A DNA stretch of 32,000 nt from Candidatus Methanoperedens sp. (GTDB lineage: Archaea > Halobacteriota > Methanosarcinia > Methanosarcinales > Methanoperedenaceae). The notes under the pieces were generated by a model that was not told where the DNA came from, did no database searches, and saw only the letters and a program-made list of their open reading frames with translations. The DNA lies in NCBI GenBank assembly GCA_027460535.1, contig JAPZAR010000035.1, positions 1,414 through 33,413 on the forward strand, given 5' to 3'. The stretch's first letter is position 1; each line of letters begins with the position of its first letter. Below, piece by piece: positions 20,253-21,789 of the stretch. Position numbers and translations under genes: made by a program.

Positions 20253-20612
20253 TCAAAATTTTGCTTTAAAAATATTTTTCATATGGAAATCAAAATACCC
20301 AGCCTGAATATGATCTATTTTTCCAAAAATTGTTTTATTGTGATATTCTTCCTCGATATCGCGATGAAGGCAAATTCGTTTTGAATAGTCTATAGCGATA
20401 TTACCACACTCAAATTCTGTATGATGATTAGGACAAAGTGCTATTATATTATCATATTTATCATAATCTTTTTTATTTTTAAGAGGTCTGACGTGCGCGC
20501 CTTCAACTAATAAACGACCATTATAGTCCTTCTTATTCCATCCGCAAATAACGCAAGCATTTCCACATAAATTAATCCCTTTTTCACTCTCCTGACTATT
20601 TCGGGATACCAT
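20253..20612 (-). CDS. HNH (His-Me finger) endonuclease
   Basis: CVICGW...VEGAHVRPL...DNIIALCPNHHTEFECG. Start set at ATG 20612, overlapping the upstream gene by 17 nt. Confidence 0.8.
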   Translation of the reverse strand: MVSRNSQESEKGINLCGNACVICGWNKKDYNGRLLVEGAHVRPLKNKKDYDKYDNIIALCPNHHTEFECGNIAIDYSKRICLHRDIEEEYHNKTIFGKIDHIQAGYFDFHMKNIFKAKF

Positions 20613-21789
20613 ACATAATCCACTCACTGGTTTTAGGAGCGATGTTCCTATCAACAGTATCAAATAAAATTCTCCACAAATTCGGATCTTTACTCATCTG
20701 GTTTATTTGATTATGGTGGTTCTTGTACGTCCTCGTTATTTCTTGAAGTAGTTGGTTTCCTATACGGTTAAAAATTTTTTCTGGTTTTTCATACCATCCA
20801 ATCCTTTCACTCGCTTCATCGTATTTCACTACTCCTCGAAAGCTTGACAATAAGGGCAGCAGAAATTGTATTGGCAAATCCCAGATGATATCTTTGCCCA
20901 AAAATATTGTTTTTCTTGGATTATCTTTTCGACTCGTTATTACACCGAGGTTTGTAAAACCTCGTGGCGCAGAGTCATGAAAAGTTGTGAGAATATGCTC
21001 TTCTAAATTAATAATATCATTAACTAATGGATACGTATGTAAAAATTCATTTTGATGCCCCAGCCAATAATTGAATGTTGCATTTTTGCTTGTTGCAGAT
21101 TTATTTGGTTGTTCCGTCCCATCATGCCAATTACTTTGATAGGATTTAATATTAAATAGATTCAACCGTGCAATAAGGTCAACAGCGGTTAGTCCCCTAT
21201 CATTAGGTACTTTTCGATTTTCAAACCAAATGATATGTTTTTCAAAATCAGCATTCATTGAAAGTTTTATCTTTGCAAAATATCCCCGTTTTTCAGCAAC
21301 AGAATATGATTTTACGTTAGAAGCTGTATTCCTACTTGCAGCAATCATTGCAAGCTTTTCAGGTGAAAATTCCTGTTCAATAACATCCAAGCGTACAACA
21401 GCCTTCGAAATATCTTGTTCTTTCTTTGTGTCCAAAAGGGCTAGTTGTGTATGCCCTCCATTTACGATTCCTGTTCCAGGAGGAAAATTTATTTTGACGG
21501 TCTTATTTTTTTTATTTACAGTCACCGTCACCTTAGTTGAGATTACATCAATTCCCCCGTTTTGTAGTAAAAAATCAATAGGGGCTGTCTTTAACGTTTT
21601 TATCATATCCTTATAAGGTTGTGATTTCTCCGATGGTTCTCTAACATTAGCATCCAACGGTAAATCTAAATAATCACTACCTTTTATGAAAAAAGTGTAC
21701 ATTCGTGGATAACCTGGTACATCATACGTTTTATATTCTATAAAATCCATCTCGACTTCTGTTGGGGTAGACCTTGTACCTGATGGCAT
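20596..21789 (-). CDS. AIPR-like (abortive infection phage resistance family) protein
   Basis: 397 aa. DANVREPSEKSQPYKDMIKTLKTAPIDFLLQNGGIDVIS and GTGIVNGGHTQLALL match my recollection of the AIPR core (NVR..N..I..TL...P..F..NNGIT ... IVNG.QT). The gene looks AT-rich by eye. Confidence 0.65.
   Translation of the reverse strand: MPSGTRSTPTEVEMDFIEYKTYDVPGYPRMYTFFIKGSDYLDLPLDANVREPSEKSQPYKDMIKTLKTAPIDFLLQNGGIDVISTKVTVTVNKKNKTVKINFPPGTGIVNGGHTQLALLDTKKEQDISKAVVRLDVIEQEFSPEKLAMIAASRNTASNVKSYSVAEKRGYFAKIKLSMNADFEKHIIWFENRKVPNDRGLTAVDLIARLNLFNIKSYQSNWHDGTEQPNKSATSKNATFNYWLGHQNEFLHTYPLVNDIINLEEHILTTFHDSAPRGFTNLGVITSRKDNPRKTIFLGKDIIWDLPIQFLLPLLSSFRGVVKYDEASERIGWYEKPEKIFNRIGNQLLQEITRTYKNHHNQINQMSKDPNLWRILFDTVDRNIAPKTSEWIMYGIPK

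Follow-up and report, generated by a model that had tools for sequence, protein, structure and literature searches.

Our data point toward a two-gene nuclease module, widespread elsewhere, that the genome of Candidatus Methanoperedens sp. gained horizontally and carries as a stand-alone copy. The copy lies in a stretch of 32,000 nucleotides (nt) that was analyzed as a whole (contig JAPZAR010000035.1, referred to here as the window). It consists of a gene for a short protein of the AIPR family and, overlapping its end, a gene for a small HNH nuclease, and both are part of an islet of low G+C (GC) content between lrp, encoding an Lrp/AsnC regulator, and cofC. Taken together, we consider this reading probable, with the function in defense as its inferred part. 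A first-pass annotation of the same DNA had described the islet as a compact sensor-plus-nuclease defense module. A conserved two-gene unit was borne out at about 45 loci; the roles in sensing and in defense can be put only conditionally.

The larger protein had been taken for AIPR-like from two motifs, NVREPSEKSQPYKDMIKTLKTAPIDFLLQNGGI and GIVNGGHTQLALL, and the smaller one for an HNH nuclease from the signature CxxC...H...N...CPNHH; each of these was found in the translations. Indeed, the larger protein is a clear member of its family. It matched Pfam PF10592 with an E value of 6e-20 and 72.5 bits (cut-off, 25), with residues 45 to 355 aligned to positions 1 to 296 of the 308 positions of the profile, and PF10592 was also matched by all of the 32 AIPR homologs that were aligned. 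The homolog alignment revealed two invariant motifs, DANVR (residues 46 to 50) and GxxNGGHxQ (residues 107 to 115), and the AlphaFold2 model of the full protein had a mean confidence (predicted local distance difference test [pLDDT]) of 90.4. A search of the AIPR profile against the sequences of the PDB yielded nothing real, and in PADLOC, at E values of up to 0.1, the protein matched only MzaE, and that weakly, and not AbiU.

The smaller protein is a nuclease of the His-Me finger type, as had been proposed. It matched the Pfam profile HNH_2 (PF13391) with an E value of 7.5e-10 and 39 bits (cut-off, 21), and HNH (PF01844) was matched as well. In the alignment of 22 partner proteins, C20, C23, H40, C60, N62, and H64 show no variation, and N55 and H63 show almost none; the zinc ligands (C20, C23, C60, and H63) and the catalytic H...N...H layout (H40, N55, and H64) are therefore intact. 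The HNH profile retrieved TagI (6ghs; E = 6.7e-10), EcoKMcrA (6ghc; E = 1.9e-5), and ScoMcrA (5zmm; E = 0.017) from the PDB, each of them matched only on its C-terminal HNH domain (residues 205 to 301 of 311 in TagI). Weak matches were also obtained to the NCBIfam model for a "phosphorothioated DNA-binding restriction endonuclease" (positions 174 to 252 of 284) and to mREase_IV of PADLOC. The enzymes matched are all modification dependent and have a reader domain of their own. With 119 amino acids (aa), the protein is the nuclease domain alone and has no DNA-reader domain, and homology thus identifies it as the bare catalytic domain of a McrA/TagI-type (type IV) restriction nuclease.

The two open reading frames (ORFs) are present on the minus strand as had been claimed, and the overlap of 17 nt, with the HNH ATG at 20612 and the AIPR stop at 20596, can be read directly from the sequence. 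The mechanical ORF of the HNH gene starts with a TTG at 20663 and gives 136 aa. However, the alignment of the 22 partners begins at the ATG, where MVSRNSQESEKGI corresponds to the consensus MxxRNKxESxKGI, and we therefore take ATG 20612 as the start. Judged from its arrangement, the overlap likely serves translational coupling.

The pair is not a chance arrangement of this genome. We found 95 homologs of the AIPR protein of ~390 to 400 aa (clustered at 90% identity), and the subfamily comprises 214 clusters at E values of up to 1e-30 (representatives at 50% identity). It extends over archaea, bacteria of the candidate phyla radiation (CPR), Bacillota, Bacteroidota, Spirochaetota, and Verrucomicrobiota; the sources include Woesearchaeota, Promethearchaeota, Methanomassiliicoccaceae, Kaiserbacteria, Saccharibacteria, Verrucomicrobiia, Clostridium perfringens, Selenomonas, Treponema, and Paludibacteraceae. 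Loci of the pair were collected from contigs of genomes and metagenomes and by looking up exact proteins. Among the AIPR homologs with at least ~150 nt of readable downstream DNA, every one with 31 to 57% identity had the same small HNH gene directly 3' of the AIPR gene, which makes ~45 loci in archaea and bacteria, and the two genes usually share ~8 to 20 nt at the AIPR stop. Furthermore, the identities of the two proteins rise and fall in parallel across the loci. Overlapping co-occurrence in essentially all homologous loci with readable downstream DNA marks AIPR-HNH, at the level of sequence, as a real conserved unit. A 547-aa protein (P0092) that was considered as an AIPR-HNH fusion was discarded; its tail is rich in arginine and proline and unlike HNH, and the protein is probably an artefact of frame read-through.

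The islet was acquired horizontally, as is seen from its deviant composition and from the empty site in relatives. Its GC content is 34.3%, compared to 43.7% in the rest of the window, which is the minimum of the window for that length, and the GC content at third codon positions is 0.23 in the HNH gene and 0.28 in the AIPR gene, compared to 0.44 to 0.59 in the neighboring genes. In four congeners (L007, L009, L011, and L014), lrp and cofC are directly adjacent, divergent neighbors ~85 to 100 nt apart, without the insert. The sequence of this gap is recognizable on either side of the insert in the window, so that the junctions fall close to 20138/20139 and 22002/22003. The AT-rich noncoding flanks of the pair, estimated at ~170 and ~255 nt in the first pass, measured 171 nt (20082 to 20252) and 256 nt (21790 to 22045); since their outer ends are native gap DNA conserved in the congeners, the imported DNA is confined to about 20139 to 22002. 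The AIPR protein of the window is absent from ~60 related genomes, in which just two distant long AIPRs were matched (E, ~1e-4). Each of the 41 genomes searched within the genus has cofC, and in many congeners this gene has a different neighborhood, which arose by rearrangement and not by insertion. The view of an islet wedged among core genes was also confirmed by Pfam, which gave, in addition to the Lrp/AsnC regulator and CofC, a class I/II aminotransferase on the lrp side and a DtxR-type repressor on the CofC side. The coordinates are compiled in Table 1.

Table 1. Features of the AIPR-HNH islet and its borders (positions in the window)
Feature	Position	Strand	Description	Basis
AIPR gene	20596..21789	-	397 aa; short AIPR-family protein	Pfam PF10592, alignment, AlphaFold2 model
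HNH_2 nuclease gene	20253..20612	-	119 aa; catalytic domain only	Pfam PF13391, alignment of 22 partners
AIPR/HNH overlap	20596..20612	-	17 nt; TAG at 20598-20596, HNH ATG at 20612-20610	From sequence
Imported low-GC islet	20139..22002	.	~1.86 kb, in lrp-cofC intergenic region	Empty sites of congeners L007, L009, L011, L014; GC
Imported AT-rich region	21790..22002	-	Upstream of AIPR gene	Not in empty sites; no second genomic copy
Imported 3' noncoding tail	20139..20252	-	Downstream of HNH gene	Not in empty sites; unique in genome
Native intergenic DNA, lrp side	20082..20138	.	~57 nt, ends in TTTGTGTTGTTTTT	By-eye alignment with congeners' gap
Native intergenic DNA, cofC side	22003..22045	.	~43 nt (TTTCCAAAGCTTTTTAT...)	Kept in L007, L009, L011, L014; junction by script
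Flanking core gene, Lrp/AsnC regulator	19602..20081	-		Pfam; 87-97% identity in congeners; protein cluster with members named Candidatus Methanoperedens
Flanking core gene, cofC	22046..22690	+		Pfam CofC, 186 bits

The imported region upstream of the AIPR gene presumably carries the pair's own promoter; a scan of the islet for bacterial-type (sigma-70) promoters and terminators was uninformative for an archaeon. The sequence at the left junction, TTTGTGTTGTTTTT, is repeated imperfectly as TTTGTTGTTTCTT just inside the right junction, but this direct repeat of 13 to 14 nt is weak evidence because it is short and imperfect. The ends of the islet have no second copy elsewhere in the genome. A collinear repeat between 21899-21949 and 30590-30643 was not confirmed as a repeat element, the alignment being weak, with scattered identities (68%) and gaps. 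In one further genome (G061; L068:952-1623, minus strand), an unrelated 223-aa ORF without a Pfam match occupies the same lrp-cofC gap, and therefore, this intergenic site has been hit at least twice. We nevertheless rejected the gap as an insertion hotspot, as G061 alone among the congeners has another gene there.

The company that the pair keeps elsewhere was surveyed with Pfam at 21 loci, in 136 ORFs lying no more than 4 kb away, with per-locus counts made on 20 nonredundant loci. The commonest neighbor families are MethyltransfD12 (8), N6_N4_Mtase (7), DpnII (3), DndE (3), Mrr_cat (3), and HATPase_c_3 (3), and DndD-type SMC/AAA_23 proteins are also among them. A methylase, either Dam-class or N4/N6, is present at 10 of the 20 loci and dnd genes are present at 4, so that 14 have one or the other, often in one tight same-strand operon; the remaining 6 have neither. 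The methylase loci include three complete DpnII-type cassettes, one MutH-type endonuclease, and one gene of the DpnI family. At L030, L033, and L027/L048, the pair stands within a tight same-strand operon together with methylases and a classical endonuclease, and at L045 and L026, the whole cassette is a Dam-class methylase plus the AIPR-HNH pair. The order at L041 to L044 is Mrr, GHKL ATPase, AIPR, and HNH, followed by DndEDCB on the opposite strand. That AIPR proteins are common in restriction-modification (R-M) operons was remarked in 2008 (PMC2292703), and our neighborhood statistics extend this remark. At L031 (3215 to 4955; Selenomonas sp. WCT3), the genes immediately upstream of the pair encode a D12-class methylase and, abutting it, an endonuclease of the DpnI family ("Dam-replacing," methyl-directed); should GATC be the target of both, this would be a strange combination.

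The situation in Methanoperedens is different. The window has no linked DNA-modification gene, and in the genome, which is 99.8% complete, neither a D12 methylase nor DndE was found; its N6_N4 methylases are all on other contigs. A classical R-M system was rejected for the islet because there is no cognate methyltransferase next to it, the neighbors being lrp, the aminotransferase, cofC, and the DtxR-type repressor. This copy is thus free-standing, unlike the others, which are mostly accessories built into methylase, DpnII, or dnd cassettes.

In our model, the AIPR and HNH proteins would act as one enzyme, because the partner of the bare nuclease domain is in every case the same AIPR protein; the model gains support from the long AIPRs, since these carry a nuclease in cis. 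The AIPR subunit may supply what is missing from the HNH protein, that is, recognition of the DNA or of its modification state and on/off control, and this control is possibly nucleotide dependent if the assignment of AIPR to ParB/Srx-like proteins in the literature is right. The HNH subunit would then nick or cut the target DNA. Since no marking gene is linked to the pair here, the module would have to spare unmarked self DNA, and this copy and the six other loci without a linked modification gene argue against a simple killer of unmodified DNA. The most economical reading of the sequences is that the module is most likely a modification-dependent (type IV-like) or infection-triggered restriction nuclease that targets the viruses of Methanoperedens or its other mobile DNA. 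Formation of the complex, the role of AIPR, the target, and defense itself are all inferred here.

Several observations weigh against this reading. One concerns the AIPR fold. AbiU1/AIPR/COG1479 proteins have been assigned to the ParB superfamily, with fusions to varied nuclease domains and with links to R-M (Makarova et al.; PMC3632139). By eye, the order of elements in our model (an arginine loop, two helices, strands, and a glycine-rich motif at the start of a helix) and the positions of the motifs appear to resemble ParB. However, Pfam matches to ParB, DUF262, or DndB were not obtained at E values of up to 10, neither with the domain halves nor with the 32 AIPR members. When AIPR was compared by hhalign with DndB, with a ParB_N protein, and with a DUF262 profile of 29 sequences, the probabilities were 0.1 to 0.2; the comparison with DUF262 was run with a narrow and with a 225-sequence AIPR profile, and the latter gave 0.14. 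Foldseek with the full model found ParB (6sdk), Srx (7lj1), PadC (6ryk), and SspE (7drr) only weakly (probability of ≤0.25), and with a model of the domain alone (pLDDT, 87.5), none of the four was among the top 50. Because these tests were negative or nonsignificant, we keep the ParB-like assignment as a claim of the literature alone. A second point is a clade with 64 to 69% AIPR identity (L036/37, L069, L070, L073, and L074, on low-GC archaeal contigs) that has no HNH gene and in which unrelated genes follow. Maximum-likelihood analysis placed this clade as sister to the AIPR protein of the window (support, 100/99) and nested among HNH-bearing lineages, and its lack of HNH therefore reflects a single loss; as the nearest AIPR clade has none, AIPR can persist without HNH. 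Third, we found no integrase, no clear att sites, and no convincing terminal repeats in the islet that would explain the insertion. Finally, the tight link to methylase or dnd genes elsewhere could mean that the nuclease needs a partner modification, and the orphan copy in the window would then either have no activity or rely on an unlinked methylase.

The last point leads to the strongest alternative, which we judge to be unlikely. According to this alternative, the pair is the restriction half of an R-M-like system that attacks DNA lacking the mark of the host, either N6-methyladenine (m6A) or phosphorothioate, and requires a partner enzyme; the Methanoperedens copy would be an orphan that is protected by an unlinked methylase or silenced. 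It would account for the adjoining methylase or dnd genes at most loci, for the cassettes of L045 and L026, in which a Dam-class methylase is the only companion, and for the four dnd loci, where the pair together with the GHKL ATPase and the Mrr-like gene fills the place expected for the restriction partner. The N6_N4 methylases elsewhere in the genome could provide the protection. Yet, the cassettes of L030, L033, L076, and L027/L048 have a DpnII or MutH-type endonuclease of their own, which makes the pair an extra, and the chemistries of the partners differ (m6A versus phosphorothioate), so that a single reader requiring both is hard to see. Moreover, the window and 6 of the 20 loci are without a nearby modification gene, the genome is without a D12 methylase and DndE, and the closest solved relatives of the HNH protein are all modification-dependent enzymes.

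We give a still lower rank, that of a doubtful alternative, to AIPR itself being the effector, an abortive-infection protein similar to the single-gene AbiUi, with HNH as a dispensable accessory or modulator. AbiUi by itself gives resistance (PMC13064643), and Makarova et al. name the AIPR core a nuclease domain of the ParB superfamily (PMC3632139). The sister clade without HNH also fits, as it keeps an intact AIPR protein, including DANVR, with unrelated genes after it, for instance one for MazG or for a ParB_N protein. Outside this one clade, however, the HNH gene is always there, overlapping, and with its catalytic residues kept over very large evolutionary distances. The AIPR protein itself is short, with the Pfam match starting at residue 45, and is without the FokI-like nuclease domain of AbiUi, and no nuclease fold was detected in its model with Foldseek. 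As for the loci of the HNH-less clade, the MazG-type pyrophosphohydrolase (109 aa) is encoded 40 nt 3' of the AIPR gene at L036 (7222 to 7551) and at L037 (3033 to 3362), and the next gene at L070 (2121 to 3476) encodes a 451-aa protein with a ParB_N domain (E = 9e-17). The L069 contig, which carries one of the closest AIPR relatives, has a GC content of 0.31 and mostly small one-strand ORFs without Pfam matches, and it contains a perfect tandem repeat (1682 to 2122) that translates as LSLSFY at least six times.

Highly improbable, finally, is a selfish mobile cassette in which a free-standing HNH endonuclease of the homing type and a helper spread by cutting empty sites without benefit to the host: the clean intergenic insertion without integrase or long repeats, the patchy distribution, the frequent position of the pair wedged between genes of other operons, and the different gene in the same lrp-cofC gap of another congener would agree with it, but the HNH protein is of the McrA/TagI restriction class, the AIPR family has members with experimentally shown anti-phage function (PMC13064643; also the MzaE model), the neighborhoods are specifically DNA-modification immunity genes and not random sites, and related copies were not found in viral contigs, with only distant AIPRs (≤28% identity) in phage and plasmid collections. 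An integrative mobile element was also rejected, as the islet has two genes and is without an integrase or transposase, significant repeats, or extra genomic copies.

It remains to compare the pair with known systems. In GmrS/GmrD, BrxU, and SspE, a ParB/Srx-like nucleoside triphosphatase (NTPase) is combined with a His-Me nuclease (PMC10952713). As in these systems, including GmrSD, a His-Me finger nuclease is here paired with a part that may serve regulation or recognition; the regulatory part of the GmrSD type and AIPR have been placed in the same ParB-like assemblage (AbiU1/AIPR/COG1479; PMC3632139), and the original GmrS/GmrD consists of two proteins, as does the AIPR-HNH pair. GmrSD-type systems act on the modification state of DNA, with BrxU attached to BREX and SspE to Ssp (PMC10952713). 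Unlike the GmrSD family, the AIPR protein has no DUF262 (PF03235; E values of up to 10, N-terminal half and 32 members) and has NGGHT instead of DGQQR, and the nuclease is HNH_2, with DUF1524 not among its Pfam matches. The likeness is one of architecture, not of membership, and since the ParB-like fold of AIPR was not confirmed by Pfam, hhalign, or Foldseek, we treat it as an analogy only. With the modification-dependent type IV enzymes TagI, EcoKMcrA, and ScoMcrA, in contrast, the HNH domain is homologous and has the same CxxC...H...N...CxxH layout; these enzymes have their own N-terminal reader of modified DNA in the same chain, whereas the HNH protein of the window lacks such a reader and is paired with AIPR as a second, distinct protein.

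AbiU (AbiUi) of Lactococcus lactis, the prototype of Pfam AIPR, shares the AIPR core and has an experimentally shown, modest anti-phage function (PMC13064643). It has ~570 to 590 aa, carries a FokI-like nuclease domain at its N terminus, and functions from one gene (PMC13064643), whereas the AIPR protein of the window, at 397 aa, lacks such a domain and is accompanied by a nuclease that a second, overlapping gene encodes. As with AIPR proteins embedded in restriction-type operons (PMC2292703 and PMC9523054), some of the pair loci also carry an adjoining GHKL (HATPase_c_3) gene. The Mza system differs: the AIPR protein scored 20.9 bits against the MzaE model of NCBIfam (NF041935), far below the ≥1050 needed for an equivalog, and its neighbors are lrp and cofC and not MzaA to MzaD. 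In agreement with the first-pass annotation, which knew of no named system with this pairing, PADLOC 2.0 has no model for it beyond the weak MzaE match, and the pair is undescribed in the full-text literature searched. Neither the component families nor their connection with R-M is new; the AIPR+HNH pair is not named in that literature.

The remaining window is core metabolism apart from one KAP NTPase, and we therefore rejected the islet as part of a defense island. The KAP protein (889 aa; 8494 to 11163, plus strand), a KAP-family P-loop NTPase followed by ~12 stretches of pentapeptide repeats, lies in a patch with a GC content of 0.35 to 0.40 and could be another conflict or defense-type gene. 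Other patches of low GC content (0.29 to 0.36) are found at 4001 to 5500, 15501 to 16000, and 29501 to 30000. Two ORFs on the minus strand, of 218 aa (4454 to 5110) and of 220 aa (16139 to 16801), had no Pfam match.

For about two decades, AIPR proteins have carried the annotation "abortive infection" and have been sighted in R-M operons, with no mechanism. In the subfamily described here, the AIPR core is without the usual fused nuclease, and a bare HNH domain of the McrA/TagI type is instead linked to it, apparently by translational coupling. A bolder idea, which we regard as improbable, is that the AIPR-HNH pair is a portable "plug-in" restriction unit. AIPR, which the literature relates to DndB, would read the modification state produced by the attached marking system (Dam-type m6A in DpnII-like cassettes or phosphorothioate in dnd clusters) and license a generic McrA-type HNH nuclease, and the Methanoperedens copy would be an active barrier against modified DNA of viruses or of giant extrachromosomal elements. 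If this is true, the minimal two-gene form would be the first tractable handle on the role of AIPR in R-M operons, a question open since 2001 to 2008.

In sum, the genome of Methanoperedens documents the recent, clean gain of a probable defense gene pair at an intergenic site between core genes. The subfamily to which the pair belongs occurs preferentially as a part of Dam/DpnII and dnd operons, and its simple two-gene layout allows a direct test of what the AIPR core does.

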